This document shows, piece after piece, positions 5,219-48,675 of a stretch of DNA of 64,000 nucleotides. The DNA is taken from assembly GCA_945872795.1 (NCBI GenBank), contig CAMCAZ010000010.1, forward strand, positions 2,135 to 66,134, read 5' to 3'. Numbering within the stretch: the stretch's first letter is position 1; every line of letters begins with the position of its first letter. Below the pieces are notes generated by a model, which was not told the origin of the DNA, did not search any database, and saw only the letters and a list, made by a program, of their open reading frames with translations. This DNA comes from Chryseobacterium gleum (GTDB taxonomy: Bacteria; Bacteroidota; Bacteroidia; Flavobacteriales_F; PHOS-HE28). The translations under genes and the position numbers were made by a program.

Positions 5219-6253
5219 ATGCGTAAGGGGCTTCGCATATTTCTGTTCGTTCTGGCCCTTCTGGCGGTCGCGGCCGGTCTGTGGGGTTGGCAGATGTGGC
5301 AGCGCGTGTTCGCCCCGGCGACGGCTGTGGATACGGTGCACTACCTGCACATTCCCACCGGTGCCGATTTCGACCAGGTGATGGACAGCCTGGAGGTCAA
5401 CCGCCTTGTGAAGGACCCCGACGCTTTCCGGTGGACGGCCGAACGGAAGAATTATCCGAACAAGGTCCGACCGGGGCGCTATCGGATTGAACCCGGGCTT
5501 AGTACCAATACTTTGGTGGACCGGCTGCGCAGCGGAGAGCAGGAACCCGTAAGGCTCACGCTGACGAACATCAACTGGATGCATGAGCTGGCGGGCAGGG
5601 TCGCTCAACGGTTGGAGTGCGATTCCATTGAACTTCTGGAACGATTGCGGAGCGAAGAGGTGGCCTCCCGTTACGGGTTCACGCGTGCCACCTTCATCGG
5701 CATGTTCGTGCCCGATACCTATGAGTTCTGGTGGAACACCGATCCGGAGGCTTTCCTGGACCGGATGGCAAAGGAGTACCGGCGCTACTGGACCCCTGAA
5801 CGGCAGGCCAAGGCCAAGGCCCTGGGCCTTACCCAGAGCGAGGTGAGCACGCTGGCCAGCATTGTCCAGGCGGAGACCGGTGTGGCCAGCGATGCACCCT
5901 TGATCGCTGGTGTGTACCTCAACCGCTTGCGCATCGGCATGCCGCTGCAGGCCGACCCCACGCTGAAATACGCCCTCGGGATGGACAGCATCAGCCGCGT
6001 CCTGGACCGGGACAAGTTGGTGGATTCACCTTACAACACCTACCAGCACAAGGGACTTCCTCCGGGGCCCATCAACCTGCCCGAGGCCCGGTTCATCAGC
6101 GCCGTTCTCGATGCCGGGAAACACGACTATTTGTACTTCTGTGCACGATCCGACCTTAGCGGGCATTCCGATTTTTCACGGACCTACGAACAGCATCTGG
6201 TCTATGCTCGGAAGTACCAGAGGGCATTGGACCAACGTCAGATCTACCGCTGA
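5219..6253 (+). CDS. mltG: endolytic murein transglycosylase MltG/YceG
   Basis: N-terminal TM helix and YceG-like domain (YLYFCA motif near the C-terminus). Confidence 0.8.
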   Translation: MRKGLRIFLFVLALLAVAAGLWGWQMWQRVFAPATAVDTVHYLHIPTGADFDQVMDSLEVNRLVKDPDAFRWTAERKNYPNKVRPGRYRIEPGLSTNTLVDRLRSGEQEPVRLTLTNINWMHELAGRVAQRLECDSIELLERLRSEEVASRYGFTRATFIGMFVPDTYEFWWNTDPEAFLDRMAKEYRRYWTPERQAKAKALGLTQSEVSTLASIVQAETGVASDAPLIAGVYLNRLRIGMPLQADPTLKYALGMDSISRVLDRDKLVDSPYNTYQHKGLPPGPINLPEARFISAVLDAGKHDYLYFCARSDLSGHSDFSRTYEQHLVYARKYQRALDQRQIYR

Positions 6254-18235: not shown

Positions 18236-18309
18236 CGGGGTGTAGCGCAGCCCGGTAGCGCACTTGCATGGGGTGCAAGTGGTCGCTGGTTCGAATCCAG
18301 TCACCCCGA
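18236..18309 (+). tRNA. tRNA-Pro (anticodon GGG)
   Basis: Manual fold: acceptor CGGGGTG/CACCCCG, U8, D-arm GCGC-AGCCCGGTA-GCGC, anticodon stem CTTGC/GCAAG with loop ATGGGGT (U33, GGG, G37), T-arm GCTGG-TTCGAAT-CCAGT, discriminator A; no encoded CCA. Confidence 0.8.
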
Positions 18310-18361
18310 CTGGCTGATACAAGAAGGCCGTTCTCCCCGGAGAGCGGCCTTCTGCATTTCC
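18281..18361 (+). repeat. 81-bp direct repeat, copy 1 (tRNA T-arm and 3' acceptor plus downstream terminator-like hairpin)
   Basis: Matches 18641-18721 with a single mismatch; contains hairpin AAGGCCGTTCTCCCCGGAGAGCGGCCTT. Confidence 0.9.
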
Positions 18362-18369
18362 GAACGCTG

Positions 18370-18618
18370 GTGCATTTCTACATCCTTCATTCCGCCATCC
18401 TGGATCGATACTACTTGGGCCACACCAGCGAGGCGTTGGATGAACGGTTGCGCAAGCATTTGAGCGCCCACAGCGGCTGGACGGCCCGGGCCAAGGACTG
18501 GCGCCTGGTCCACCATGAGCTATTTGCCACGAAGAGTGAAGCCTATCGGCGTGAACTGGAGGTGAAGGGCTGGAAGAGCAGACCACGGCTTGAGGCCTTG
18601 ATCGGCGCAGCCCGGTAG
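18370..18618 (+). CDS. GIY-YIG nuclease superfamily protein (small stand-alone URI domain, ~82 aa)
   Basis: GIY-YIG motifs HFYILHS…RYYLGHT…RLRKH…; conserved downstream E in ATKSEAYRRE; GTG start; stop codon lies inside the D-loop of the downstream tRNA fragment. Confidence 0.75.
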   Translation: MHFYILHSAILDRYYLGHTSEALDERLRKHLSAHSGWTARAKDWRLVHHELFATKSEAYRRELEVKGWKSRPRLEALIGAAR

Positions 18619-18721
18619 CGCATCCCGCTTTGGGCGGGATGGTCGCTGGTTCGAATCCAGTCACCCCGACTGGCTGATACAAGAAGGCTGTTCTCCCCGG
18701 AGAGCGGCCTTCTGCATTTCC
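18605..18721 (+). repeat. 5'-truncated tRNA-like 3' fragment plus 81-bp direct repeat copy 2
   Basis: D-arm through 3' acceptor present but no 5' acceptor strand; 18641-18721 duplicates 18281-18361. Confidence 0.85.
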
Positions 18722-26182: not shown

Positions 26183-27997
<1,815 letters not shown>

Positions 27998-28003
<6 letters not shown>

Positions 28004-28169
28004 TGTCGCAACCCGTAAGTTCCTTAACCATCTCCGCCCCTCTTTCACCTTCCTGCCGCGTTGGAACATTTTGTCGTAGCGCCCGCTACGCCGTGCATGT
28101 TCCGCCTTGCATGAAGGCGAAATAGTGGCAGACCTTCAGTTAACCAACTTACGGGTTGCGACACTAGGC
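27998..28169. repeat. perfect 24-bp inverted repeat (GCCTAGTGTCGCAACCCGTAAGTT / AACTTACGGGTTGCGACACTAGGC) flanking a 124-bp spacer; left arm overlaps the typA stop codon
   Basis: Reverse complement checked base by base; weaker match continues in the flanks (CTTAACC vs GTTAACC). Confidence 0.8.
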
Positions 28170-28188
28170 TTCTTCGGTCCATGATCCT

Positions 28189-30474: not shown

Positions 30475-33400
30475 TCAGTTCGCCCCATAGCGGGGATCTT
30501 GTTTCCACGGGAGCTTCTCCATGTGTTCCACGCTCAGGGAGCAGTGCCCGAATTCCTCCTCCACCTTGCCCGTGAGGCGATAGACGCCGCGCCCCCGGAA
30601 CGGATACTTCGCCTCCACATTGGGGAACTGCGTGCTGTCCCAGAAATCACCTGCCGGGTCGATGAAACTGCCGAAGCTCATGCGTTCCCCGGTGCCGGTC
30701 CGCGTGGGCTTCACGTGCACCACATAACCCAGCATGGTCACCGTGCGGCCGTTATGGGCAGGCATATCGCGGGCCAATATCACAGGAGGTGTGATGTGTG
30801 AAGTGTTTGGTGTGAACTGTGAAGTGGTCGCATTCCCATCGCGCCTTCGCGAAGCCTTCGGTGAAGCGAGGTCATCCGTTTGTCCGATCACCTGTTCGTC
30901 CGATCCGCCCTTGACCAGTAGGAAGGGATCGCACAGCGGGAAGCCGAGCAGTTCCAGTTCGTCATAGGCATCGCTGAGGTCGAAGTGCTGGAGTTCTGGC
31001 AGCTTCGTTTGCGGAGTTTTGGTGATGAAGAGGTCGACGCTGCGCTCGATGGCCTTCGCGCCGGGATGCAGCAGCGTGAGGTCCCACAGCAGCTCGGGTT
31101 TGCTCTTTCCGGTGAAGCGGAAGGCTCCCACGCGGATCAGCATGCGGGCCTGTTCCACGCCGATGGACACGCGGCGCAACAGGTCGGGGAGGTCGGCGAA
31201 GGGGCCGTGACGGCGGCGGTCCGTGAGGATGCGTTCCACCGTGGCGGAGTCCAGGGATCTGATGTTCCGGAGACCGAGATAGATGCTGGCCTTTAGCCGT
31301 GGGCTACTGGCTTCTGGCCGATCATCGGAACGGCCAGAAGCCAGCGGCCAAGGGCCAGCAGCGTGCAACGTGCAGAGCTCCCCGCTCCGGTCCACGCACG
31401 GTGCCTCGATCACCGCCCCGGCGCGTTTCGCCTCGTGCAGGTAGAACTCCGTGTGGTAGAAGCCGCCGAAGTTGTTCGCCACGGCCACCATGAACTCCAG
31501 CGGGTGGTAGGCCTTCAGGTAGAGGCTCTGATAGCTCTCCACCGCATAGCTGGCGCTGTGGCCCTTCGCGAAGCTGTAGCCGGCGAAGCTCTCGATCTGC
31601 CGCCAGATCTCGGCGCTCTCCTCCGCCGGGTAGCCCTTCTTCATGCAGTTGTCGAAGAAGCGCTCCTTCACGCGTTGGAACTCCTCCCGGCTGCGGTACT
31701 TGCCACTCATGCCGCGACGCAGGATGTCGGCCTCGGCCAGCGTGAGCCCCGCATACAGGTGCGCCACCTTGATCACGTCCTCCTGATAGACCATCACTCC
31801 GTAGGTGTCGGGCATGATCTTCAGCATCGCCGGGTGCGCCTGCTTGCGCCGTTCGGGATCGCGGTGCCGCAGGATGTACTCGCGCATCATGCCGCTCTGC
31901 GACACACCGGGTCGGATGATGCTGCTCGCCGCCACCAAGGTCAGGTAGTCCTGCACGCCCAGCTTCTTCAGCAGCATCCTCATGGCCGGGCTCTCCACAT
32001 AGAAGCAGCCGATGGTGTCGCCGGTGCGAAGGAGTTCGTTGATCTTCGGATCGTGCTTGAAGCGTTCGATGGCGTGAATATCGATCAGGGGTCGACCCAG
32101 TGGGTCGACGGTACGGGTGCTTCGACCATACGTAAGCGCCATCACTGCACCCGTTCCGATCGCCGTTTCAGGTTCCGGCTCGCTGGCCATCTGTGATGAG
32201 GTGCAATTCCCATTTTCTGATCGTCTGATCATCTGATCATCTGATCCGCATTCCACGAGCTCCACCGCATCCCGTATATGCCCCAGGCCCCGCTGGCTGA
32301 GGATGTCGAACTTATACAGCCCCAGGTCCTCGGCCTCGAGCATGCTGAACTGCGTGGTGGCGAAGCCCTTCGGCGGTAGGTGCAGCGCGGTGTAGTGGGT
32401 GAGGGGCTGCTCGCTGATCAGCACGCCGCCGACGTGGATGCTCAGGTGGTGCGGATGCTCATGGAAGTGCTCCGCGTAACGCAGGATGGTGCGGGCGATG
32501 CGTTCGTTGTCGATCTCCACGCTGCCGCCGTTCGAGGCCTTCGCGTTGTCGCCGCGCCCGATCCAGCGCGAGTGACCCGCATCCCCTTCGGCGAGCGCGT
32601 CGATGTCCGCCGGCGGAAGGCCGAAGACCTTGCCCAGTTCGCGCACCACGGCGCGGCGCTGGTACGTGCTGTACGTGGCGAGCAGCGCGACCCTGCGCTG
32701 TGCACCGTAGGTGTCGAAGAGGTACTGCGTTACCTGGTCACGGTCCTTCCAACTGAAGTCCAGGTCGAAGTCGGGCGGGCTGCTCCGGCTGGGGTTGATG
32801 AAGCGCTCAAAGTAGAGGTCGAGCTCGATGGGGTCCACGTCGGTGATGCCCAGGCAATAGGCCACCAAGCTGTTGGCGCCACTGCCGCGCCCCACGTGGA
32901 AGAAGCCCTTGCGCTTCGCGAAGCGGATCAGGTCCCAGTTGATCAGGAAGTAGCTCACGAAGTCCTTCTGGGCGATCACGGTGAGTTCGCGATCCATACG
33001 GTCCATCACCTTCTGCGAAGGTGCGGGATAGCGGCGAAGCAACCCCGCCTGGGTCTCCGTGCGCAGCAGTTCGAGGTCCGCTGAAGCATCATTGCTCCAG
33101 GTCCTCCGGTTCTTGCTCTTGCCATGGGCGAAGTGCACATCGCACTGGTCCATCAGGCGGCGCGTGTTCCACACCAGCTCGGGCACATCGGCGAAGGCGG
33201 TGCACACCTGCTCCTCGCTCAGGAAGCGGTTCTCCGGTACTGAGACATGTGCTGTCGGTGTGGTGCTCAGCAGGGTGTTGGTGTCCACCGCACGTTTCAA
33301 GCGGTGCACGTTGAAGTCGCGTTTGCCCAAGGGCACATCACTGTGGAAGGTGGCTGTGACCAGGGCGAGCAGCTTCTCTTTGCGTGCCATCCACGGCGAG

Positions 33401-33825
33401 AAGCGCAGGCGGTTCACATCGCCCGACCGCACGCCGATGAACTCGTTGGGGCGCAGTTTGGCCGGAATGTTCACGGCACCGTACAGGTAGATGATGAAGG
33501 CGTCCGGAAGTTCCGGTGCTTGTTCAGGAAGCGCGTTGCCGTCCAGCAACCGGTCCGTCAGCAGGGAGGCCAGCTGCTGCACTCCTGCGTTGTTCCGCGC
33601 GATGCCGATGTACAGCGTTCGTGCCCCCACTTTGAACTCGATCCCCGCCAAGGGCCGCACCTTGTATTTGTCCGCCAGCCGGAACAGGTCGCTCCAGCCC
33701 GCCGTGCAGTTGATGTCGGTGAGCGCCACCTGCTGAAGCCCCAGGTCGTGCACCTCCTGCAGCACCTGCTCGGGCGAGAGCACGCCGTGGTTGAGGCTGA
33801 ACCAGCTGTGGACGTTGAGGAGCAC
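30475..33825 (-). CDS. dnaE2: DNA polymerase III alpha-subunit family, error-prone DnaE2-like (1116 aa) with a 53-aa in-frame insertion
   Basis: N-terminal PHP domain, polymerase core motifs (GRGSGANSLVAYCLGITDVDP, FDLDF), OB-fold C-terminus. Length and N-terminus fit DnaE2 better than replicative DnaE. Confidence 0.75.
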   Translation of the reverse strand: MLLNVHSWFSLNHGVLSPEQVLQEVHDLGLQQVALTDINCTAGWSDLFRLADKYKVRPLAGIEFKVGARTLYIGIARNNAGVQQLASLLTDRLLDGNALPEQAPELPDAFIIYLYGAVNIPAKLRPNEFIGVRSGDVNRLRFSPWMARKEKLLALVTATFHSDVPLGKRDFNVHRLKRAVDTNTLLSTTPTAHVSVPENRFLSEEQVCTAFADVPELVWNTRRLMDQCDVHFAHGKSKNRRTWSNDASADLELLRTETQAGLLRRYPAPSQKVMDRMDRELTVIAQKDFVSYFLINWDLIRFAKRKGFFHVGRGSGANSLVAYCLGITDVDPIELDLYFERFINPSRSSPPDFDLDFSWKDRDQVTQYLFDTYGAQRRVALLATYSTYQRRAVVRELGKVFGLPPADIDALAEGDAGHSRWIGRGDNAKASNGGSVEIDNERIARTILRYAEHFHEHPHHLSIHVGGVLISEQPLTHYTALHLPPKGFATTQFSMLEAEDLGLYKFDILSQRGLGHIRDAVELVECGSDDQMIRRSENGNCTSSQMASEPEPETAIGTGAVMALTYGRSTRTVDPLGRPLIDIHAIERFKHDPKINELLRTGDTIGCFYVESPAMRMLLKKLGVQDYLTLVAASSIIRPGVSQSGMMREYILRHRDPERRKQAHPAMLKIMPDTYGVMVYQEDVIKVAHLYAGLTLAEADILRRGMSGKYRSREEFQRVKERFFDNCMKKGYPAEESAEIWRQIESFAGYSFAKGHSASYAVESYQSLYLKAYHPLEFMVAVANNFGGFYHTEFYLHEAKRAGAVIEAPCVDRSGELCTLHAAGPWPLASGRSDDRPEASSPRLKASIYLGLRNIRSLDSATVERILTDRRRHGPFADLPDLLRRVSIGVEQARMLIRVGAFRFTGKSKPELLWDLTLLHPGAKAIERSVDLFITKTPQTKLPELQHFDLSDAYDELELLGFPLCDPFLLVKGGSDEQVIGQTDDLASPKASRRRDGNATTSQFTPNTSHITPPVILARDMPAHNGRTVTMLGYVVHVKPTRTGTGERMSFGSFIDPAGDFWDSTQFPNVEAKYPFRGRGVYRLTGKVEEEFGHCSLSVEHMEKLPWKQDPRYGAN
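32089..32247. repeat. 159-bp interspersed repeat (copy A) inserted in-frame inside dnaE2
   Basis: GGTCGACCCAGTGGGTCGAC palindrome, ACGGGTGCTTCGACC block, CCATTTTCTGATCGTCTGATCATCTGATCATCTGATCC tail. Related copy at 46674-46795 and partial copies at 43408-43559. Confidence 0.8.
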
Positions 33826-33891: not shown

Positions 33892-36800
33892 TTACAGCAC
33901 CAATCGATCATCCTCCCCCTCCCGGTCGAAGAACAAGTGGTCCGGGTCGAGCAAGACCTCCAAGGGCTTCAGGGACGTGGTGATGTGAACGTGGTTCTTC
34001 CCGCTGAGCGAACGTACCCGTTGCTTCACCTCTTTACCGCCTTCCACCCGTACACTGACATCGATCCAGTCGTTCATCGGCACCTCCGTTTCCTTTCCCG
34101 AGGGATCGGCATGGAGCTTCGCGCAGGTGATGGAAGCGGTAACGGTCCACGACCCATCCGTATGCTGTACGGCCGAGGCGGAGGACAGTGCGTTCCTGTG
34201 GAAGGTGATCTGCTCCAGACCATCCACCAACAGGTAGTGCAGACTGTCCGGGGTCACGGCCTCCAACGCGCGATACAGGTCAAGCGTGGTGGGGTAGGGG
34301 GCTTCACCGAAAGCGAAGGAATCCACCATCGATCGATAAGCGGAATTCACCTGTTCCTCGCCGATCAGGTCTCGCAGGGCATACATCACCACACTGCCTT
34401 TGTTGTAGTGGATGTACTGCTGGTCCTCCACCCGCATCAGCGGCAATTCCCCAATGCCTTCCTGTCCCCGACCGCGTAGGTAGTTGTCGCGCTCGTACTT
34501 CAGGAAGCGGCGCATCGCCTTGCGACCATACTCCTTCTCCATCACCATGAGCGCGGTGTATTGCGCCATGCTCTCCACGAGCATGGTGGATCCCTGCATG
34601 CGCGGCCCCAGCACCTGGTGGCCCCACCATTGATGGGCCACCTCGTGCGCCACCACGTAGTAGACCATGTCGATGCGGCTGGTGTCGCGCAGGTCGGTGA
34701 TGAAGCCGATGGCCTCGCTGTACGGCATGGTGCCCGGGAAGGATTGCGCGAAGCGGCGGTACCTGGGGAACTCGATGATGCGGGCCACCTCATGCTGATA
34801 GGGGCCGAATTCGGTGGAGGCATAGCTCAGTGCGTCACGCATGGCCTTCAACATGCGCGGAACGTTCGTGCCGTGCTCCGGATGGTGGTACACCTCCAAG
34901 GTGACCGGGCCGGCCTGCTCACGGGCCACTTGATAGCGCGCGCTCAGCACCGCCCAGAAGTTGAAGATGGGTGCCTGGCAGACGTAGCGGTACCAGCGTT
35001 TTCCATCCGCCGTCCAGTCCTTCACCAGGGTCCCCGGTGCGATACCGATCTGGTCCGGTGCGGTGCCGATGGTACAGGCGAAGCGGATGCGGTCGGCATG
35101 GTCCATGGTCTCGTTCGTGGCACGGTCACGCGGATCATCGCTCAAGGGTGCGGTGCGCGGTCGCACCGGTAGGCCGGCCTTTCGACGTTCGCCCGGTTCG
35201 GACAGCTCCACTTGGTCCTGGTAGCCGATCATGGGCAACAGGTCCATCGTGTTCAAGAAGGTCCCGTTCTCCACCAATGACAGGAACTCCACATCGTTCG
35301 TGAAGCCCTTGGGCGCCCATTCCCCGGTGACCACGACCCGTACGGAGTCGCCGGTGCTGAGGGAGCGATCCAAGCGGAACATCCGCTGGAAACGGGCGCT
35401 ATCGTTCAGCACCAAGCGGGCGCTCGGCACCTCGAAGCTCATGTGCATGTGATCGGGCAGGCTGAACCACAACGTATCCACCGGAGCGTCACCCTTGTTG
35501 GTGAGCATCATCTCAGCCGTGTATCGGATGCTGCGTTCCTCGGGCTCAAGCTCCACGGTGATATCCACGGCGGTGAAGTGTGGAAGAGCGGTGTTGGTGA
35601 AGCGCTTGTAGGTCCGTTCGTAGTCGACCTGGAGCGCCTCCGTATCCTGTTCGGTGACCGGTCGGTTCAGGATACGGGTGTTGTAGAAGCCGATGAGCAG
35701 CAACACGACCCACGCGCCGAATGCCAGAGCTCCCGTTCTCCAGGATCGCTTCCATCGGATCCCCGCGATGCGCCAGCGCCAACCCCAAGTGGTCTCACCA
35801 CCGCGCACCACGAAGAGCGAGGCGATGAAGAGCAGGCACACAGCGAAGGCGAGCCAGTAGGCCCGGAAGAACGTCCAGGGCATCATAAATGGACCGAAGC
35901 CGTTCATGTCCGAGTACAGCAGCCGAGGTCCGCCATAGAACACCAGTAGGTTGGACTCCACCTTCAGGAAGCGCCAGATCAGCGTGTTCACAGCGAAGAG
36001 CACGACGAACAGGCCGAAACCGACGTACTTATGGTGAACGAGCGTTTGGATGGTCAAGGCCACCATGGACCAGAACGCGAACGCGATGACGCCGGGCAGG
36101 ATGAAGCCCAGCAGGTAGGTCACGGGCTGGTTGTCGGTGTAGCCCTGCGCCAGTTGACCGATCACCCCGATCACGGCCATGAGTGTGAGGACGAACGCCC
36201 CGACAAGGATGAGCGTGCTGAGCTTGGCCAACAGGGGGAATGAGGTGCGCACAGGAAGCGCGTTCATGATCCCCTCCAGGCCGGCATCGCGATCACGCCA
36301 CAGGAGTTCACCGCTGTAGAAGGTGATCAGCACCATCACGAACAACATGGACATGCCCCGCAGCATCTCGGCCACGTGGTAGGTCACCGGCCAGCTGTGG
36401 TTGCCGAAGGCCGAGGTCACTTCGCTCAGGCTGATGGCGGTCATCAGTAGGCCGAGGCCAGTGATGATCCAGAACACGGGTGAGCCGAGAATGCCACGCA
36501 GATCGGAACCTATCAAAGCAAAGAAGCGCCTCCACTGGGATGTCCACCCATAGTGGAGTTGGATGTTCGGGAGCGTCTTATCCGCTCCGGAGTGCAGCGC
36601 TTCGTCAGCGACCTTGAGGTGACCGGGTCGCCGCCGTTCGGTGAACGTGAAGCGGAGGTACCCCACAAGGAAGATCACCGCTGCGATCCCCAGCCAGAGA
36701 AAGCGATTCCAGATGAGGGCGCCGCTCAATGGGAGCAGGGCGCTGTTCCGTTCATCCACGCTCCAGTAGCGCGTCACTTCATCCAGTGCCTGGTTGGCGA

Positions 36801-37428
36801 AAGGGTCCAAGAGCGCGGCAAGCAGACCATTGTCCACTTCCGTGGAATAGGCCGTGGCGATCACGTTGAGCACGACCAGGGCTATGGACGTGACGAACGC
36901 CGCTGCCGCCGAGCGTACCACGGTGGCCACCGCGAACATCACCGCGCTTTGGAAGAGGATGCTGGTCACCGCGAACAAGAGGAAGGTCTGCGCATGGACC
37001 ATCGGATCGTTCGGACCGAAGCGGATGGGGTCGCCCGAAGGGATCCAACTGCCGACGATGAGGCCCGCGGAGATCCCCAGCGTTGGGATGAGGGCCACCA
37101 CGGTGCTGCCCAGGAAGCGGCCCAGCACGTACTGGCGTTTACTGACCACCGTGCTGAACACGATGTCCGAGGTATGGTGTGCGAAATCGCGGATCGCGGT
37201 GGCGTTCACGAACGCCGTGACCATGGGGAGCCAAAGGAAGGCCAGGTTGGCATAGAGCTCATAGACGTGTGAGGGCGAGTTCACGTGCACCATCCCCGGG
37301 CTACCCTTGCCGCCGCTCTCGAACACCGCCAGTAAGCAGGCGAATGTGAAGGCCATGCCGAGGAAGATCCACAGCTGGGGTTGACGCAGCCAGAAGCGGA
37401 GCTCGAAGTGGATGAGGCGTGTGATCAT
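33892..37428 (-). CDS. fusion protein: N-terminal ABC-2-type permease (multi-TM) and C-terminal M1 zinc aminopeptidase domain (paralog 2)
   Basis: ~550-aa polytopic N-terminus; C-terminal gluzincin motif VVAHEVAHQWWGHQV…E (Glu at +20 rather than the canonical +19) and GxMEN-like region; paralogous to 37599-41210. Confidence 0.75.
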   Translation of the reverse strand: MITRLIHFELRFWLRQPQLWIFLGMAFTFACLLAVFESGGKGSPGMVHVNSPSHVYELYANLAFLWLPMVTAFVNATAIRDFAHHTSDIVFSTVVSKRQYVLGRFLGSTVVALIPTLGISAGLIVGSWIPSGDPIRFGPNDPMVHAQTFLLFAVTSILFQSAVMFAVATVVRSAAAAFVTSIALVVLNVIATAYSTEVDNGLLAALLDPFANQALDEVTRYWSVDERNSALLPLSGALIWNRFLWLGIAAVIFLVGYLRFTFTERRRPGHLKVADEALHSGADKTLPNIQLHYGWTSQWRRFFALIGSDLRGILGSPVFWIITGLGLLMTAISLSEVTSAFGNHSWPVTYHVAEMLRGMSMLFVMVLITFYSGELLWRDRDAGLEGIMNALPVRTSFPLLAKLSTLILVGAFVLTLMAVIGVIGQLAQGYTDNQPVTYLLGFILPGVIAFAFWSMVALTIQTLVHHKYVGFGLFVVLFAVNTLIWRFLKVESNLLVFYGGPRLLYSDMNGFGPFMMPWTFFRAYWLAFAVCLLFIASLFVVRGGETTWGWRWRIAGIRWKRSWRTGALAFGAWVVLLLIGFYNTRILNRPVTEQDTEALQVDYERTYKRFTNTALPHFTAVDITVELEPEERSIRYTAEMMLTNKGDAPVDTLWFSLPDHMHMSFEVPSARLVLNDSARFQRMFRLDRSLSTGDSVRVVVTGEWAPKGFTNDVEFLSLVENGTFLNTMDLLPMIGYQDQVELSEPGERRKAGLPVRPRTAPLSDDPRDRATNETMDHADRIRFACTIGTAPDQIGIAPGTLVKDWTADGKRWYRYVCQAPIFNFWAVLSARYQVAREQAGPVTLEVYHHPEHGTNVPRMLKAMRDALSYASTEFGPYQHEVARIIEFPRYRRFAQSFPGTMPYSEAIGFITDLRDTSRIDMVYYVVAHEVAHQWWGHQVLGPRMQGSTMLVESMAQYTALMVMEKEYGRKAMRRFLKYERDNYLRGRGQEGIGELPLMRVEDQQYIHYNKGSVVMYALRDLIGEEQVNSAYRSMVDSFAFGEAPYPTTLDLYRALEAVTPDSLHYLLVDGLEQITFHRNALSSASAVQHTDGSWTVTASITCAKLHADPSGKETEVPMNDWIDVSVRVEGGKEVKQRVRSLSGKNHVHITTSLKPLEVLLDPDHLFFDREGEDDRLVL

Positions 37429-37598: not shown

Positions 37599-40500
37599 TC
37601 ACTCCACCTCCACCTTCTTCACATTGTCCTGCATCACGCGATCGAAGAACAGGTTGTCGCGGTCGATCACGGCCTGCATGGGTTTCTCCTGTACGATGAA
37701 GGTCAGCTTGTTCACACCCGAGCGCAGGCGCAGCCGTTGGTGTACGAGCGGCACCTCGTTCAGCGACTTGTCCGCCTTCCTTCCCAGCTTTGGGTAGCGC
37801 AGGATGCTGACGTCCATCCAGTCGTTCATGGGAGCTGGTGTCTCGCGACCGAGGGAATCGGCATAGTTCTTCTCACCGAAGAGTTCGAGCGTCACTTCGT
37901 AGGTGCTGTCCGGCAACATGCGGGCGCTGGCCTTGTCCACCCGGTTGTTGTAAAGCGTGATCCGTTTGAAGCCATCGATCAGCAGGTACTCCAGGCTATC
38001 AGGTACCACCTGCTCCAGTTCGCGGTACATGTCCAGCGCGGTGGGGTATGGCGGCTCCGCATAAGCGAAGGTGTCCACCAGCGCCTTGAAGGCCCTGTTC
38101 AGGTTCTCCTCGCCCACGAAGTCGCGCAGGCCGTAGAGCACCACGCTCGCCTTGTTGTAGTGCACGTACGGCTGGTTCTCCACCTCCATCAGGGGCACCT
38201 CCTTCAGCTCCTCGGTGCCGCGTGCACGCTGGTACCGGTCGCTCTCCAGCTTCAGGAACTTGCGCATCTGCGCCCGGCCGTACTCGTCCTCCATCACCAT
38301 CAGGGCACTGTACTGGGACATGCTCTCGCTGAGGAGGGTGCTGCCCTGCATGTCGGCGCCGATCACTTGGTGGGCCCACCACTGGTGCCCCATCTCGTGC
38401 GCCACCACGTAGAACACCATGTCGATGTCGGTGGTGTCGCGCAGGTCGGCGATGAAACCGATGGACTCGCTGTAGGGCATGGTGCCCGGGAAGGCCTGGG
38501 CGAAGCTGAAGTACCGGGGGAACTCGATGATGCGCGCCTGCTTGTGGCGGTAGGGGCCGAAGTTGTCGCTGTAGTACTGGAGCGACTTGCGGATGCTGTT
38601 CGCCATGCGCGGCACGTTCTCGGCGTGGTCCGCGTGGTAATAGACCTCCACGTCCACACTCTGCCCTGAGCCTGTCGAAGGGTGCCACTTCTCACGGTGC
38701 ACCGCGTAGTCGGCGCTCATGAACGAGTAGAAGTTCATGCTCGGATGGTCCACCACGTACTCGAAATAGCGTTTGCCGTTCTCCGTCCACTCGCGCTTCA
38801 GGCTGCCCGGTGCGATGGCGATCTGGTCGGGCGTGGTGCTGATCACGGTGCGCACGGTCACCCAGTCACTGTTCGGCACCAGGTAGGTCTGCATGCGCGC
38901 TGCGCTATCGGCTGAGAGGCGCGGCATGCGCTCCTTCGCAGGAAGCCCGCGGTCCTTACGCTCGCTCTTGTCCTGCAGTTCGCCTCCGGCCGAGTAGCCG
39001 ATGCCGGGCAGCAGGTCCATGTTGTTGAAGAAGGTGCCGTTGTGGTTCAGTTGCGCCACGCGGGGCTCGTTCTCGAAGCCCTTCTCCACGTGGGTGGCGG
39101 TGACGGTGAAGCGTAGGTCCTCGCCGGGCATCAGGGGCCTGGCGAGCTTGTAGATGCGGTAGTTCACGCGCTCGTCGTTCAGCACTAGTTGAGCGCCGGG
39201 CAGGTCCACCTCCTGCTCGATGCCGCCGCCGCCCATGTTCAGGTGCAGCGAGTCGATCGGAGCGTTGCCCTTGTTGTGCACGGTGACCTCCGCCACGGCG
39301 TGCAGGCTGCGCTCGGCGGGTACCAGGTCGATGGTGAAGCGGATGTCGGTGTAGTGCGGCTGCAGCATGCCCTCGTACCGCTTGTAGGTGCGCTCGTAGT
39401 ATTCCAGGTCGTCCTCCATGGTGGAGGCATCGGGCATCTCGTTCAGCACCTTGGTATTGTAGTAACCCCAGGCGCCGAGCAGCACCCAGGCGGAGAGGGC
39501 GGGGATGGCGTATCGCTTGTTGGTGCGCAGGCGGCCCCCGGCGATGGCCAGTCGCTTGCGGAAATGTGTTTCCCGGCCGCGCACCCAGAAGAGCAGCGTG
39601 ATCACGAGCAGCACGGCGGAAAAGGCCCACCAATAGGCCTTGAACCACAGCCAGCCCGTGAGCGCCGTGCCATAAGTGTTCATGTCGCTGTAGCTGAGGT
39701 TCGGCGCGCTGTTGAACTGCACCAGGTGGCTCGTGACCTTGAGCGCCGGCCACAGGATGAGGTTCACGGCCAGCACCACGAGGAACACCGCATAGCCCAC
39801 GTACTTGTTATTCACCAGCACGTGGCAGAGGAACGAGAGCGCGGCCAGCGCCCCGAAGCCCAGCAGGCCGGGCACGATGTAGTAGCCGAGGTAGACACCC
39901 GGCTCGATGCGCGTGTAGCCGTTGATGAGCTGGAAGACCATGCCCCCCAGCGCAGTGACCAGCAATACGGTGAGCAGCAACAGCAGCAATGCCGTGTACT
40001 TCGCCAGCAGCCCGATGCCCAGCGGCAGCGGCGTGGCGTCATGCACCTCGTCCAGCTTGGGCTCGCGCTCTTTCCACACCAGCAGCCCGCTGTAGAAGAC
40101 GATGAGGATGGTGGTGAAGAGACCGAAGCCCCCTTCGATGACGTCGATGACGTTGTAGGTGACCGGGTGTATGGTGTTCTCGTAGAGCGAGGTGCTGAAC
40201 GAGAGGTTGAGGAACATGTTGAGCAGCCCTATGCCGGTGACGAGCAGGAAGGCCACGCCGCGGGTCATGCCGGTATAGTCGTTCCACGCAATGCGGCGGA
40301 ACTGCCGGATGCGCGCCACGGCGCCGTGGCTGCGATCCACCCGGGGCAGGGGCACGGCTGCTGGGGCCGCGACGGGACTCACGGCGGGCTCGGCCAGGGG
40401 CGCACGCTGCCGCCGGTCGGTGAAGCTGAAGCGCCAGTAGCCGAAGGCGAAGATGCCGGCGGCGACCGCGGTCCAAAGGATGCGGTTCCACAGCAGCACA

Positions 40501-41210
40501 CCGCTCATCGGCAGCAGCAGCGTGTTCTTGTCGTCCACGGTCCAGTAGCGGGTGATATAGCTGAATGCGGTGCTGCCGAAGGGGTCCAGGAGCGAGGCCA
40601 GCACCTGGTTCTCCATCTCGGTCATGAGCGAGCCGGCCACGCCGCTGCCCACCATGATGAGCACGGCCGTGATGAAGGCCGCCGCCGTGCTGCGCACCAG
40701 TACGGCCACCGCGAAGATCACGGCAGCGCTGAAGACGATGTTGGGCAGGGTGAGGTATAGGTAGGCCTGCAGGTGCGCGCCCATCAGGTTGGGGCCGATC
40801 TTCTCGGGATCGAGCCACCACATCCAGCTGCCCACCACGATGCCGAGCGACACCCCCAGCATGGGCAGGCTGGCGACGAAGGTGCTACCCAGGAAACGGC
40901 TCAGCAGGTAGTGCCGCTTCTTCAGCGGGGTGCTGAACATGATCTGCTGCGTGTTGTACGTGAAGTCGCGGATGGCGCTCGCGTTCACGAAGGCGGTGAC
41001 CATCAGCAGCCCGAAGAAGGCCAGGGTGGCATAGTAGACGAACACCTTGTAGGGCGCGTTGTACTTCACGTTGGCCAGTTCGGCACCCACCTGCACCTCG
41101 TCGATCACCAGGCTCAGGTAGCTCAGCAGGGCGAAGAGCAGCAGGAAGATGTACGCCATGGGCTGCCTCAGCCAATGGCGCAGTTCGATGAGGAGGAGCC
41201 GCCAGGTCAT
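37599..41210 (-). CDS. fusion protein: N-terminal ABC-2-type permease and C-terminal M1 zinc aminopeptidase domain (paralog 1); start overlaps the ATPase gene stop (ATGA)
   Basis: Same architecture; VVAHEMGHQWWAHQV…E; 4-nt overlap with upstream ABC ATPase gene indicates translational coupling. Confidence 0.75.
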   Translation of the reverse strand: MTWRLLLIELRHWLRQPMAYIFLLLFALLSYLSLVIDEVQVGAELANVKYNAPYKVFVYYATLAFFGLLMVTAFVNASAIRDFTYNTQQIMFSTPLKKRHYLLSRFLGSTFVASLPMLGVSLGIVVGSWMWWLDPEKIGPNLMGAHLQAYLYLTLPNIVFSAAVIFAVAVLVRSTAAAFITAVLIMVGSGVAGSLMTEMENQVLASLLDPFGSTAFSYITRYWTVDDKNTLLLPMSGVLLWNRILWTAVAAGIFAFGYWRFSFTDRRQRAPLAEPAVSPVAAPAAVPLPRVDRSHGAVARIRQFRRIAWNDYTGMTRGVAFLLVTGIGLLNMFLNLSFSTSLYENTIHPVTYNVIDVIEGGFGLFTTILIVFYSGLLVWKEREPKLDEVHDATPLPLGIGLLAKYTALLLLLLTVLLVTALGGMVFQLINGYTRIEPGVYLGYYIVPGLLGFGALAALSFLCHVLVNNKYVGYAVFLVVLAVNLILWPALKVTSHLVQFNSAPNLSYSDMNTYGTALTGWLWFKAYWWAFSAVLLVITLLFWVRGRETHFRKRLAIAGGRLRTNKRYAIPALSAWVLLGAWGYYNTKVLNEMPDASTMEDDLEYYERTYKRYEGMLQPHYTDIRFTIDLVPAERSLHAVAEVTVHNKGNAPIDSLHLNMGGGGIEQEVDLPGAQLVLNDERVNYRIYKLARPLMPGEDLRFTVTATHVEKGFENEPRVAQLNHNGTFFNNMDLLPGIGYSAGGELQDKSERKDRGLPAKERMPRLSADSAARMQTYLVPNSDWVTVRTVISTTPDQIAIAPGSLKREWTENGKRYFEYVVDHPSMNFYSFMSADYAVHREKWHPSTGSGQSVDVEVYYHADHAENVPRMANSIRKSLQYYSDNFGPYRHKQARIIEFPRYFSFAQAFPGTMPYSESIGFIADLRDTTDIDMVFYVVAHEMGHQWWAHQVIGADMQGSTLLSESMSQYSALMVMEDEYGRAQMRKFLKLESDRYQRARGTEELKEVPLMEVENQPYVHYNKASVVLYGLRDFVGEENLNRAFKALVDTFAYAEPPYPTALDMYRELEQVVPDSLEYLLIDGFKRITLYNNRVDKASARMLPDSTYEVTLELFGEKNYADSLGRETPAPMNDWMDVSILRYPKLGRKADKSLNEVPLVHQRLRLRSGVNKLTFIVQEKPMQAVIDRDNLFFDRVMQDNVKKVEVE

Positions 41211-43161: not shown

Positions 43162-43407
43162 GATGTGATCGGTTCAGTTGAGAGGGTAAGATCGTTGATC
43201 CATCCGGTTGTTGTGCGTGAGGGATGGTAGCGGCAGCTTGCCGCCGGACCGGCCCAGCAGCGTAAGGAGCGAGGAGGCCCGACGATAGGAGGGACCCCGC
43301 AGCCCGATGCGATGCGGGCCGGGCCAAGGCAACTACAGCGGACAGCCCGACCCCGCGCGCTGGCCGGTGGGAGGAAGGGGGGCACGCCCGAAGGCCAATC
43401 AGACTAT

Positions 43408-43559
43408 GAGAAGATCAGACGATCAGATGATCGCCCGCGCGCATGCCCACCCCAATGCCGATCAAATGGTCACAAGATCCTGGCTGTGGTTCTTCGCTGG
43501 TATGGTCGGCGGCAGGCATTTCCATTTTCTGATCTTCTCATTTTCTGATCGTCTGATCC
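43408..43559. repeat. MITE-like structure: inverted copies of the GATCAGACGATCAGA / TCTGATCGTCTGATC motif flanking ~110 bp
   Basis: 43408-43432 GAGAAGATCAGACGATCAGATGATC and 43523-43559 CATTTTCTGATCTTCTCATTTTCTGATCGTCTGATCC, same motif family as 32208-32247 and 46752-46795. Confidence 0.6.
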
Positions 43560-43564
43560 CCTAT

Positions 43565-45390: not shown

Positions 45391-46638
45391 CTACGTCCTC
45401 CTATTCGCCAACAACACCGGTGCCTGCCCATCAAAAGGGTTGTCCATCCGCCCGATGCTCTTCGCATCCATGCCGGCCGCGCGCATCACGGTGCGGTCGC
45501 CGAAGCGCTTGCGGATCTTGTCCATGGCCTGGTACAGGTCCATGGCCTCCTGCGTGTCGGTGAAGGCATCCATCTGGTGGCCGCCACCCACCAGGTGACT
45601 GAAGCGCACGCCGATCAAGCGGATCCGTTGGCGACGGTCGTACAGCGCGCGGAAGAGGTCGTGTACTGCGGGTAGGATGATGTGGTCGCAGGCCGTGTAG
45701 CCCACGCGCGCTTGTTTGGTGTGCGTGTTGAAATCGGCGTAGCGGATCTTCACCGCGATGCAGCTGGTGAGCTTGTCGCCCTTGCGCAATTGGAAGGCGA
45801 GGCTTTCGGCCATGGCGGTGAGCAGGCCTTTCAGTTTCACCACATCGATGGTATCGCGCTCGAAGGTGCGCTCCGTGCTGATGCTCTTGCGCTCGTGCCA
45901 GGCGATCACCGGACTATCATCGATGCCGTTGGCCTTGCGCCACAGCACAGGCCCGTGCTCGCCCAACAACCGGTGCATCAGGTCCACCTGCAGCTCTTGT
46001 AGCGTGTGGATCTTCGCCACGCCCATGCTGCGCAACAGGTGCGCGGTCTTCTCGCCCACGCCGGGGATGCGTTCTATGGGCATGGGCGCCAGGAAGGGTT
46101 TCTCCGTGCCGCGCTCCACGTACCATTCGCCCGCGCCGTTCTTCGCCTCGCCGGTGGCCACCTTGCTCACCGTCTTGTTGATGCTCAGCCCGAACGAATT
46201 CGGCAGCCCGCTATCCTTGATGATCTTCTGCCGCAGCTCCACCGCCAGCTTCCTGCTGCCGTGGAATTTGTCGGTGCCGCTCAGGTCCACGTAGAATTCG
46301 TCCACGCTGCTCTTCTCGAACAGCGGCACGTTCGCGCGGATGATCTCCGTCACCTCATCGCTCTTCTTCAGGTACGCTCCGCTGTCGCCGCGCAGGATGA
46401 TCGCCTCCGGGCACAACTGCTTGGCCATCTTCATCGGCATCGCGCTGCGCACCCCGAAGGCCCGCGCCTCGTAGCTGCAACTGGCCACCACGCCGCGGTC
46501 GCTGTCGCTCCCGATCAGCACGGGTCTCCCGTTCAGCTTCGGGTTCTCCAGCCGTTCCACGCTCACGAAGAAGGTATTGAGGTCCAGGTGGAGGATGGTT
46601 CGTTCGCCGTTGATCATTCTACATTCTTCATTCATCAT
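45391..46638 (-). CDS. dinB: Y-family DNA polymerase IV
   Basis: Catalytic LDLNTFFVSVE and SVDEFYVD motifs; little-finger domain; 415 aa. Confidence 0.85.
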   Translation of the reverse strand: MMNEECRMINGERTILHLDLNTFFVSVERLENPKLNGRPVLIGSDSDRGVVASCSYEARAFGVRSAMPMKMAKQLCPEAIILRGDSGAYLKKSDEVTEIIRANVPLFEKSSVDEFYVDLSGTDKFHGSRKLAVELRQKIIKDSGLPNSFGLSINKTVSKVATGEAKNGAGEWYVERGTEKPFLAPMPIERIPGVGEKTAHLLRSMGVAKIHTLQELQVDLMHRLLGEHGPVLWRKANGIDDSPVIAWHERKSISTERTFERDTIDVVKLKGLLTAMAESLAFQLRKGDKLTSCIAVKIRYADFNTHTKQARVGYTACDHIILPAVHDLFRALYDRRQRIRLIGVRFSHLVGGGHQMDAFTDTQEAMDLYQAMDKIRKRFGDRTVMRAAGMDAKSIGRMDNPFDGQAPVLLANRRT

Positions 46639-46673
46639 TTTTCATTCCCCCTGCTGCCATCACCACGCTGTTA

Positions 46674-46795
46674 GGTCGACCCAGTGGGCCCGAGGCCTCG
46701 GGCGACACTACGGGTGCTTCGACCCAGATACCTGCATACCATCGTCCACAGGCATTCCCATTATCTGATCGTCTGATCATCTCATTATCTGATCC
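46674..46795. repeat. interspersed repeat copy B (122 bp), 36 bp upstream of the dinB start
   Basis: GGTCGACCCAGTGGG, an added GCCCGAGGCCTCGGGC palindrome, ACGGGTGCTTCGACC, CCCATTATCTGATCGTCTGATCATCTCATTATCTGATCC. Confidence 0.8.
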
Positions 46796-47847: not shown

Positions 47848-48675
47848 ATGGCAAATCCCGTCTTCGGCTCCAACATCAAGCTCCTGCGCACCCGCCGTGG
47901 CCGCTCGCAAGAAGAGACCGCCATCGCCCTCGAGGTGAAACGTTCCAGCTACAGCGGCTACGAGAACGGTACGGCAGAACCCTCGTTCGAGCTGCTCGTA
48001 CGCATGAGCGAGTACTTCAAGGTGAGCATCGACAAACTGCTGCGCGATGATCTGGGCGCCCTCAGCGACAGCCAGATGGGCGTGCTGGAGCGCGGTGGTG
48101 ACATCGACCTCAGCGGTAGGCGCCTGCGGGTGCTGGCCACCACGGTCGATCGCGAGGACCGCGAGAACGTGGAACTGGTGCCCGAGAAGGCCAAGGCCGG
48201 CTACGCGCTGGGCTACGCCGATCCGGAGTACATCAGCATCCTGCCCACCTTCCAGATGCCCTTCCTGGCGCGTGACCGCAAGTACCGGACCTTCCAGATC
48301 AGCGGCGACAGCATGCCCCCCGTGGCGGACGGTTCCTGGGTCACCGGCGAGTATGTGCAGAACTGGCAGACCGTCCGCGATGGCCAGCCGTACATCGTGG
48401 TCACCAAGGATGATGGCATCGTCTTCAAGGTGGCCTACAACCAACTGAAGGAAAAGGGCACCCTACTGCTGTGCAGCACCAACCCGCTCTACGCGCCCTA
48501 CGAGGTGCAGGTCACCAATGTGCTGGAGATCTGGAAGTTCGTGCACTTCATCAGTGCCGAGCTGCCCGAGCCCAACATGAGCCGGGATGAGCTCGCCCGA
48601 AGCGTGGTGGAGCTTCGAAAGGAGGTGGGGCAGTTGCGCCTGGCCATGGAGCAGCAAGGGAGGCTGTCGTTCTGA
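47848..48675 (+). CDS. LexA-like repressor: XRE-family HTH fused to S24 peptidase (autocleaving) domain
   Basis: N-terminal HTH (IKLLRTRRGRSQEETAIALEV…), C-terminal S24 domain with catalytic Ser (FQISGDSMPP) and Lys region (GQPYIVVTKDDGIVFK). Confidence 0.8.
   Translation: MANPVFGSNIKLLRTRRGRSQEETAIALEVKRSSYSGYENGTAEPSFELLVRMSEYFKVSIDKLLRDDLGALSDSQMGVLERGGDIDLSGRRLRVLATTVDREDRENVELVPEKAKAGYALGYADPEYISILPTFQMPFLARDRKYRTFQISGDSMPPVADGSWVTGEYVQNWQTVRDGQPYIVVTKDDGIVFKVAYNQLKEKGTLLLCSTNPLYAPYEVQVTNVLEIWKFVHFISAELPEPNMSRDELARSVVELRKEVGQLRLAMEQQGRLSF

Follow-up and report, generated by a model that had tools for sequence, protein, structure and literature searches.

Can a DNA polymerase take up a piece of interspersed repeat DNA within its reading frame and keep it, and what kind of repeat is it then? 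This question is raised by the gene of a C-family DNA polymerase (DnaE2/ImuC-like) in a stretch of 64,000 nucleotides from Chryseobacterium gleum (assembly GCA_945872795.1, contig CAMCAZ010000010.1, positions 2,135 to 66,134 of the forward strand; hereafter the window), in which an earlier annotation made from the letters alone (the sequence-only reading) had noticed a 159-bp repeat. Our analysis of this insert, whose position in the gene we call S5, indicates that it is probably tolerated selfish DNA, made up of one half of a miniature inverted-repeat transposable element (MITE) and of a repetitive extragenic palindrome (REP) of the type linked to REP-associated tyrosine transposases (RAYTs), which became established in frame within a permissive enzyme loop and is translated as a disordered segment. 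We infer that the DNA arrived by transposition, that the ribosome reads through it and that it is neutral for the host.

The reading frame of the polymerase gene stays open throughout the 159 bp, as had been noted, and gains the 53 residues GSDDQ...PLGRP (in full GSDDQMIRRSENGNCTSSQMASEPEPETAIGTGAVMALTYGRSTRTVDPLGRP) with the junction peptides VECGSDDQMIR and TVDPLGRPLIDIHAIER. The boundaries proposed earlier were recovered when homologues were compared. The 120 best homologues, with lengths of 881 to 1229 amino acids, came from high-GC metagenome-assembled genomes (MAGs) titled 'Flavobacteriales bacterium', and 27 sequences were aligned. The five most distant of these (P0053, P0058, P0069, P0080, and P0110; 60 to 67% identity) lack the S5 insert and read ...VELVEQRTGERIDIH... 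at this position. The Escherichia coli Pol III α subunit aligns with the polymerase up to its residue 572 before the insert and from its residue 580 after the insert, with residues 573 to 579 lying at the insert position. The insert stands in for a loop of 6 to 7 residues, which corresponds to a net gain of ~47 residues. The catalytic Asp triad is intact: D352, D354, and D507 align with D401, D403, and D555 of the E. coli protein and are invariant in both the 27-sequence alignment and the alignment with E. coli α. The insert starts 20 residues after the third of them, where the fingers domain would begin under the limits given by Lamers et al. (2006).

In an AlphaFold2 model of the protein, residues 527 to 577 had a predicted local distance difference test (pLDDT) score below 50 and no secondary structure. 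The structure-free, low-confidence stretches of the model include exactly residues 527 to 577, 823 to 844, and 973 to 1010, which are the three insert segments of this polymerase (see below). The model was derived from a shallow alignment, with a mean pLDDT of 60 and a predicted template modeling score of 0.37, and is too poor for a fold search or for mapping the insert onto the protein surface. Database searches with the inserted peptide are uninformative for repeat peptides this short: a profile run against a word-indexed protein collection matched solely a spurious open reading frame (ORF) over the intergenic copy, and a full HMMER search of the 53 residues against 1.84 billion representative proteins returned three low-complexity matches.

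The sequence-only reading had linked the 159 bp to copies in intergenic DNA. Formal alignment confirmed significant similarity, but for the two ends of the insert only. In blastn searches of the window, the composite copy upstream of the Pol IV gene (Table 1) matched in three collinear blocks (15/15, E = 0.027; 22/25, E = 0.002; and 39/42 identical positions, E = 1e-12), and the stretch 43518-43559 matched at 36 of 42 positions (E = 8e-9). A further match (26 of 30, E = 5e-5) was to an inverted arm at 43398-43427. For the central ~78 nt (32128-32205) no second copy was present in the window. The insert had been described as one repeat unit, and this part of the description had to be given up: an octamer array lies upstream of the REP in just 7 of the 135 REP copies among the matches listed, so the two modules belong to separate families and the 159 bp are a composite of both, with a fast-changing core in between.

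The module at the 3′ end of the insert has the build of a REP. Its sequence GTCGACCC-ACT-GGGTCGAC forms a perfect 8-bp stem with a 3-nt loop and is preceded by GTAC; some copies of the family extend to palindromes of ~41 nt. We found 19 copies in the first 94 genome loci (~700 kb) and at least 135 copies in at least 120 stretches of metagenome contigs. Among these listed copies the tag one base from the stem is GTAG in 98 cases and GTAC in 37, and the polymerase copy carries GTAC, the stop-free variant. About 80% of the copies do not lie deep within ORFs, i.e., the family is dispersed and mainly extragenic. Sampling directed at the REP also brought up five RAYT-like ORFs of ~180 to 200 codons (in L174, L177, L194, L195, and L211), which a search for RAYT motifs in the first 770 kb with a regular expression had not revealed. 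They encode a HUH motif (DHLHAI) and a tyrosine motif (YIAENP), and have one REP at most 30 nt upstream and another one in frame inside. Three of them matched Pfam Y1_Tnp with 21.6 to 27 bits (cut-off 23), and three follow one common upstream gene whose product has the conserved tail ...GPGTKIP.... Such a fixed gene position is expected of a vertically inherited RAYT. In L174 (1970-2518), L177, L195 (1567-2166), and L211 the RAYT-like gene's own in-frame REP (…PVPSTQWVDPT…) is located between the HUH and tyrosine motifs. The genes found between paired REPs in L043 and L047 are paa and suf genes.

The module at the 5′ end is a 42-bp array of GATCAGAN octamers that is translated as GSDDQMIRRSENGN. 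Its GC content is 40%, compared to 63% for the polymerase gene and 61% for the window, and the window has further copies of it at 46754-46795 and 43518-43559. When genomes were scanned with a 21-nt pattern based on the array, 90 stretches were retrieved, nearly all from MAGs titled Flavobacteriales or Bacteroidota. The arrays, which vary from 3 to 5 units among copies, occur in four forms: as terminal inverted repeats of 80- to 250-bp MITEs; as solo arrays, frequently abutting a start codon; as pairs bracketing small cargo genes; and, in a minority of loci, as an array followed by a REP module. One complete MITE with two inverted arrays is present between genes in the window (Table 1). Inverted two-armed copies are common among the loci, whereas the polymerase copy has one arm and hence no terminal inverted repeats. 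The octamer module in the polymerase gene is a half-element of this MITE family.

Several features of the octamer family were seen at other loci. Solo arrays frequently end right at a gene start (L017 4158-4190, L026, L027, L022, L078, and L054), and several small genes as well as Lhr-like helicase genes apparently use the ATG of ...GATCAGAAAATGG as their start codon. Such arrays could provide a mobile AT-rich translation start region in bacteria without Shine-Dalgarno sequences. Inverted arrays that bracket cargo and contain no transposase were found at L024 1735-2279, L054 3484-4045, L051 3195-3782, L022 5391-5976, L078 6079-6640, and L043 2777-3700. Judged by eye, the cargo includes a possible four-helix-bundle protein of the 23S rRNA intervening-sequence type and a possible PIN/HicB-like pair, besides a conserved 160-residue protein of unknown function. 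At L036 5159-5735 four copies of a 125- to 145-bp octamer-array element follow each other head to tail and are closed by one inverted array, an instance of tandem MITE amplification. The arrays were also considered as SOS operators or Bacteroidota promoters; both assignments were rejected, since the arrays adjoin unrelated genes and lack TTTG and TAnnTTTG motifs. A literature search with the octamer strings gave no match.

Table 1. Coordinates in the window of the polymerase gene, its inserts, and related repeats and genes
Feature	Position	Strand	Description
C-family DNA polymerase gene (DnaE2/ImuC-like)	30475..33825	minus	ORF and translation, 1116 aa
Site S5, 159-bp in-frame composite insert	32089..32247	minus	codons 527-579, ORF open throughout
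Octamer-array module of S5	32206..32247	minus	GATCAGAT, GATCAGAT, GATCAGAC, GATCAGAA, then AATGGGAAT
Hypervariable core patch of S5	32119..32157	minus	~35 nt, ~20 positions differ from L001/L079, length unchanged
REP-like palindrome of S5	32090..32120	minus	GCACCCGTAC-C-GTCGACCC-ACT-GGGTCGAC-C; translated as (T)RTVDPLGRP
Site S6, second in-frame insert, aa 822-847	31284..31362	minus	palindrome with 13- to 14-bp perfect arms, then GTAG on the coding strand
Site S7, third in-frame insert, aa 973-1014	30784..30909	minus	diverged octamer array and nested palindrome GCCTTCGCGAAGGC + GATGGGAATGCGACC...
Complete MITE form, two inverted octamer arrays ~100 bp apart, intergenic	43398..43560		30-nt arms 83% complementary, 15-nt core 100%
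Heptamer array, AATGNNN repeats	46615..46648 (region 46599-46656)	minus	abuts the Pol IV gene start
Intergenic composite copy upstream of the Pol IV gene, modules ordered as in S5	46674..46795	minus	14-bp palindrome nested in REP arm
Pol IV (DinB) gene, ancestral operon partner of the polymerase gene	45391..46638	minus	Pfam IMS, IMS_C; synteny with L003/L004
Helix-turn-helix (HTH) and peptidase S24 (LexA-like) repressor gene	47848..48675	plus	Pfam; synteny

The copies within genes bear the marks of a reading-frame filter. As 8 and 3 have no common factor, no frame of a perfect GATCAGAT array is free of TGA, and on the reverse strand (TCTGATC) three units suffice to bring TGA into all three frames. 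Among 106 arrays of at least three units in 708 kb, 16 were located deep in coding-like ORFs. All 16 are in forward orientation and in one phase (…SDDQMIRRSENGN…), with C rather than T at the critical junction. The restriction to forward arrays inside genes is explained by the TGA codons of the reverse orientation. For the REP, the GTAC variant has a stop codon in none of the six frames, whereas the GTAG variant has TAG in one. Survival solely of stop-free variants with a length that is a multiple of three would account for the forward-only arrays, for the array unit ending in C (AGA CGA), and for the GTAC-tagged REP in the polymerase gene. Such constraints are expected if the ribosome reads through the segment and would be needless if it were cut from the RNA.

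Twelve of the 16 deep intragenic arrays are located in the DnaE2-like gene. In-frame arrays were also found in the genes for arginyl-tRNA synthetase (L060) and HsdS (L093); for the former, the size of an insertion could not be derived, since a linker of similar length is present at this place in the yeast enzyme. Of the 135 copies listed in the REP-targeted sample, 29 lay deep in coding-like ORFs, or ~26 after subtraction of three with antisense-like codon GC. Twenty intragenic REP hosts could be named by Pfam and represent ~17 families. The hosts acting on DNA are two DnaE2-like genes, HsdR, RadA, Lhr, Pol I, Mfd, and a MmeI-type enzyme; the others are a MiaB-like protein, a sensor kinase, SSF transporters, PMT_2, TrhO, allantoicase, CopA, MazG, an epimerase, and AcrB. 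The in-frame REPs are mostly translated as [RC][TS]VDP.GR[PQ] or [AP]V[AP]STH.VD. DNA-acting families make up 7 of the 17 (binomial P = 8e-4 for a background of 10% of the coding length and 0.008 for 15%, both background fractions being our own estimates).

One of the options considered in the sequence-only reading was a very recent insertion. The comparison with related genomes, which it had proposed as a check, spoke against this option. The same S5 insert is present in L001 (97% nucleotide identity over the gene), L079 (92%), and L062 and in the proteins P0002 and P0003, and a diverged form was found in P0005, P0017, and P0022 (81 to 85% protein identity). Orthologues at 81 to 97% protein identity thus carry the insert and relatives at ~60 to 67% do not, which argues against both a recent event and an assembly artefact. 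On a neighbour-joining tree built on 980 shared columns, the insert types form a mosaic: P0003 has the octamer-plus-REP insert, an element with inverted ends of AATGNNN heptamers (L002) occupies this codon in its sister P0016, and other close relatives have at least three further insert types at S5. The REP occurs at the same junction (…TCTVDPPGRHPLDIH) even in the more distant L015 and P0051, suggesting that the REP came first and that other repeats were added beside it later.

A three-way alignment of the gene from the window, L001, and L079 showed no difference over the first 60 nt of the insert. The hypervariable core patch (Table 1) forms an 8-bp ACGGGTGC/GCACCCGT stem in the window, and its flanks are nearly identical over ~50 to 90 nt, with 1 to 4 differences. 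From this pattern, the patch looks like the product of templated patch replacement or conversion and not of point mutation.

S5 is not the only site at which this polymerase has been extended. S6 is absent from P0069 and P0080 in the 27-sequence alignment and coincides with the model's coil at residues 823 to 844. In 1.46 Mb of fetched loci, its palindrome was found elsewhere only in the orthologous polymerase genes of L001 and L062, so that it is not shown to be interspersed. S7, which contains a copy of the array family (D2) at 30865-30907, is absent from P0051 and P0080 and corresponds to the coil at residues 973 to 1010. Across the clade, the alignment revealed at least six variable insert sites, and in P0030, P0043, and L088 one element type is found in one frame at three sites of a single gene. 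S5 itself is a hot spot, occupied by different repeat families in sister lineages.

Some further observations concern these sites. S7 appears as an older insert derived from an octamer array, of which L079 lacks 12 nt. The P0047 homologue (973 residues, longest contig 279 kb) ends inside its S7 octamer array (…ENAGENDRMIRR); it would be a polymerase truncated by the repeat if the gene lies inside its contig. In L002 (~5250-5370) the heptamer family forms a full in-frame inverted-repeat element at S5, and in the window the annotated N terminus of Pol IV, MMNEECRM, is derived from the heptamer repeat. The DnaE2-like gene of L015 has a repeat of the PSPKERG/PLSRGEGE type at S5 and, at a C-terminal site, a long in-frame tandem repeat of more than 10 copies of EGLTRRREGAKGAEG, interrupted by Ns. 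The same PLSEGEG repeat is in frame in the CopA ATPase of L082.

In the course of events that we favour, a REP would have landed at the loop after the helix that follows the third catalytic Asp, and later repeats would have joined it, the loop being a safe harbour by then. Only stop-free variants with a length that is a multiple of three would have survived. The mRNA would be translated straight through, the 53 residues would form a disordered surface loop with the catalytic residues kept, and the insert would have no required function. The short core between the two modules would turn over by patch replacement. The other option named in the sequence-only reading, an interspersed repeat fixed in frame and tolerated in a loop of the polymerase, is the one that agrees with these data.

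Several points weigh against this reading. By eye, no consistent target-site duplication was seen at the flanks of ~20 array copies, although a duplication of GATC or TA could be masked by the repetitive ends. No transposase for the octamer arrays was found, and no inverted pair encloses one in the sample of 94 loci (~0.7 Mb); the inverted pairs 0.5 to 1.8 kb apart enclose small cargo genes only. On the REP side, the NCBIfam model REP_Tyr_transpos matched one RAYT-like ORF with 51 bits (E = 1e-13), below its equivalog cut-off of 80, and the RAYT-like ORFs come from related metagenome contigs, not from the window's own genome. Translation through the insert is something that we infer from frame conservation only, and with so poor a structural model the predicted disordered loop is weak evidence. 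The octamer part is identical at 60 of 60 positions among genes that are 92 to 97% identical, which could hint at constraint (P ~0.05). Finally, the occurrence of 12 of the 16 intragenic arrays in a single gene is not fully explained by tolerance; this figure is inflated, because the search pattern was taken from this gene and the copies were inherited by the species sampled.

A rival explanation is that the inserts are functional, in that slippage of the octamers, whose length of 8 is not a multiple of 3, switches the error-prone polymerase on and off, or in that repeats or peptides tune its expression or activity, which would make them a repeat-driven switch of mutation or evolvability. We consider this unlikely. 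Four tandem octamers in a coding sequence, copies with 3 to 5 units, the homologue ending within its S7 array, the concentration of arrays in the polymerase gene, and the excess of DNA-acting families among those with in-frame REPs speak in its favour, and a mutator role was raised by Di Nocera et al. (PMC3733652). But the units are only four and imperfect, and the S5 array does not vary in length between the window, L001, L079, and L062. Moreover, the sampling was biased towards the polymerase gene, and the inserted peptides are wholly different in sister lineages, which argues against a conserved peptide function. It also seems improbable that the pile-up of repeats in an error-prone polymerase and in repair genes was selected as a mobile switch or rheostat of mutagenic repair, and we give little credence to the rheostat view that octamer slippage frameshifts the polymerase on and off or that mRNA hairpins set its expression. 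Under this view, the host's evolvability would be under the control of selfish repeats. A functional or phase-variable role is the sole reading that would make the finding important.

The DNA of the element folds into stable hairpins (−32.6 kcal/mol, z = −2.1), as might be the case if the segment never reached the mature protein because it was an intron-like RNA, was bypassed in translation, or was a mini-intein. This is very unlikely, since the genic copies are stop-free and a multiple of three long and have base changes that drop in-frame TGA and TAG codons, which would be needless if the segment were removed before or during translation. Rfam gave no family match for the insert region and Pfam no Hint or intein domain in the insert. 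An intein had already been dismissed in the sequence-only reading, and we agree: 53 residues compare with at least ~130 for a Hint domain, the insert begins with G (preceded by C) and ends in ...GRP without the terminal His-Asn, and the next residue, L, is not a nucleophile. That several orthologues share the insert would also fit native polymerase sequence that was later copied elsewhere, a possibility that the sequence-only reading had named as its own refutation. This we regard as extremely unlikely: the relatives at ~60 to 67% identity have a short loop without an equivalent conserved segment, the solved Pol III α structures likewise have 6 to 7 residues there, both modules are found at hundreds of unrelated intergenic and genic sites, and the array has a GC content far from that of the gene. 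Repeats are a known cause of misassembly, and a repeat collapsed into the gene was therefore considered. We found no specific support for such an artefact and give it next to no chance, because the same insert is present in assemblies made independently by different projects (L001 from the Joint Genome Institute, L079 from an NCBI MAG, L062, and the protein clusters P0001 to P0005).

The selfish composite that we favour has counterparts among known repeats. REPs inside genes for DnaE2, helicases, Pol I, and tRNA synthetases, many of them serving replication and repair, were described by Di Nocera et al. (2013; PMC3733652), so that the phenomenon of intragenic REPs in repair genes is already known. 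Our family resembles the GTAG-tagged REP/RAYT systems of that survey in its palindrome with an 8-bp stem and a 3-nt loop, in the GTAG or GTAC tag one base off, in its many copies mostly outside genes, in the RAYT-like genes that lie directly beside repeats on related contigs, and in the in-frame copies in genes for a DnaE2-type polymerase, Pol I, a helicase, and a tRNA synthetase. It differs in its host, since the GTAG repeats listed in the survey come from Proteobacteria, Cyanobacteria, Chloroflexi, and the PVC group alone, and Bacteroidetes are listed there with CGTC repeats and not with GTAG repeats. In addition, the polymerase copy is GTAC-tagged and its REP is joined to an unrelated octamer-array module. 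New here are the host clade, the octamer-array family, the make-up of the composite insert, and the hot spot with several families.

Rickettsia palindromic elements (RPEs; Ogata et al. 2000, via PMC10969869), the classic example of palindromic repeats inserted in frame, are repeats of ~100 to 150 bp that lie in unrelated housekeeping genes, end in CGTC, and have no dedicated transposase. With the RPEs the repeats described here share the in-frame insertion, the reuse of the same frame, and an apparent compatibility with folding, whereas sequences, tag, and hosts are unrelated and the insert is a two-family composite at a site used by several families. The insert behaves as an RPE does without belonging to the RPE families, from which it differs in consensus, tag, and host. 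The octamer-array family is similar to bacterial MITEs such as Correia, ERIC, and Nezha in its size of 80 to 250 bp, its terminal inverted repeats, and its location mostly between genes and often touching gene ends. Unlike these, its inverted repeats consist of tandem 8-bp units, and we saw neither a target-site duplication nor a parent insertion sequence in the loci sampled; the polymerase copy is one-armed, and a two-armed copy could not be read through. With the simple-sequence contingency loci of Neisseria and Haemophilus the insert has in common tandem units inside a coding sequence with a length that is not a multiple of three. In contrast to these loci, it has four imperfect units with conserved flanks, its array is dispersed, and variation in unit number was not seen at S5.

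These results add an uncultured clade of Flavobacteriales with ~60% GC, largely from activated sludge, to the bacteria that translate small palindromic repeats in housekeeping proteins, and the unexplained link of such repeats with replication and repair genes, with DnaE2 above all, is repeated in another phylum. The inserts also provide a natural map of insertion-tolerant polymerase loops, with three sites that take 25 to 53 extra residues in this protein and at least six across the clade. For annotation, they inflate protein lengths (973 to 1229 residues in close homologues) and spawn spurious intergenic ORFs, and repeat peptides can be mistaken for native domains.

The polymerase gene itself encodes PHP, DNA_pol3_alpha, DNA_pol3_finger, and HHH_6 domains according to a Pfam scan. 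In NCBIfam it passes the superfamily model TIGR00594 only; with the error-prone polymerase model NF004225 it scored 480 bits, below the cut-off of 939. The label 'DnaE2-like' given in the sequence-only reading is therefore not backed by this family model, but it is supported by synteny in the relatives L003 and L004, where a HTH-S24 repressor gene and a divergent IMS (Y-family polymerase) gene precede the gene for the DnaE2-like polymerase. All three genes are present in the window; the Pol IV gene, whose product scored 273 with NF002677 (cut-off 256), and the repressor gene lie 12 kb off, past two tandem paralogues that split them from the polymerase gene in comparison to L003 and L004. The paralogues (33892-37428, 1178 residues, and 37599-41210, 1203 residues) share common repeat blocks with 71 to 77% nucleotide identity, and the L002 counterpart of the first has Peptidase_M1 and a weak match to ABC2_membrane.

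Two further repeats were seen elsewhere in the window. At 18236-18310 and 18604-18721, a tRNA-Pro(GGG) gene and a partial tRNA copy 360 bp later are associated with an 82-nt direct repeat (99%) over the tRNA 3′ end and a hairpin, which may be the scar of an integrated element. Between two ORFs at 27995-28172, 34-nt inverted repeats with 91% complementarity lie 110 nt apart and could represent another small repeat element or a large terminator.

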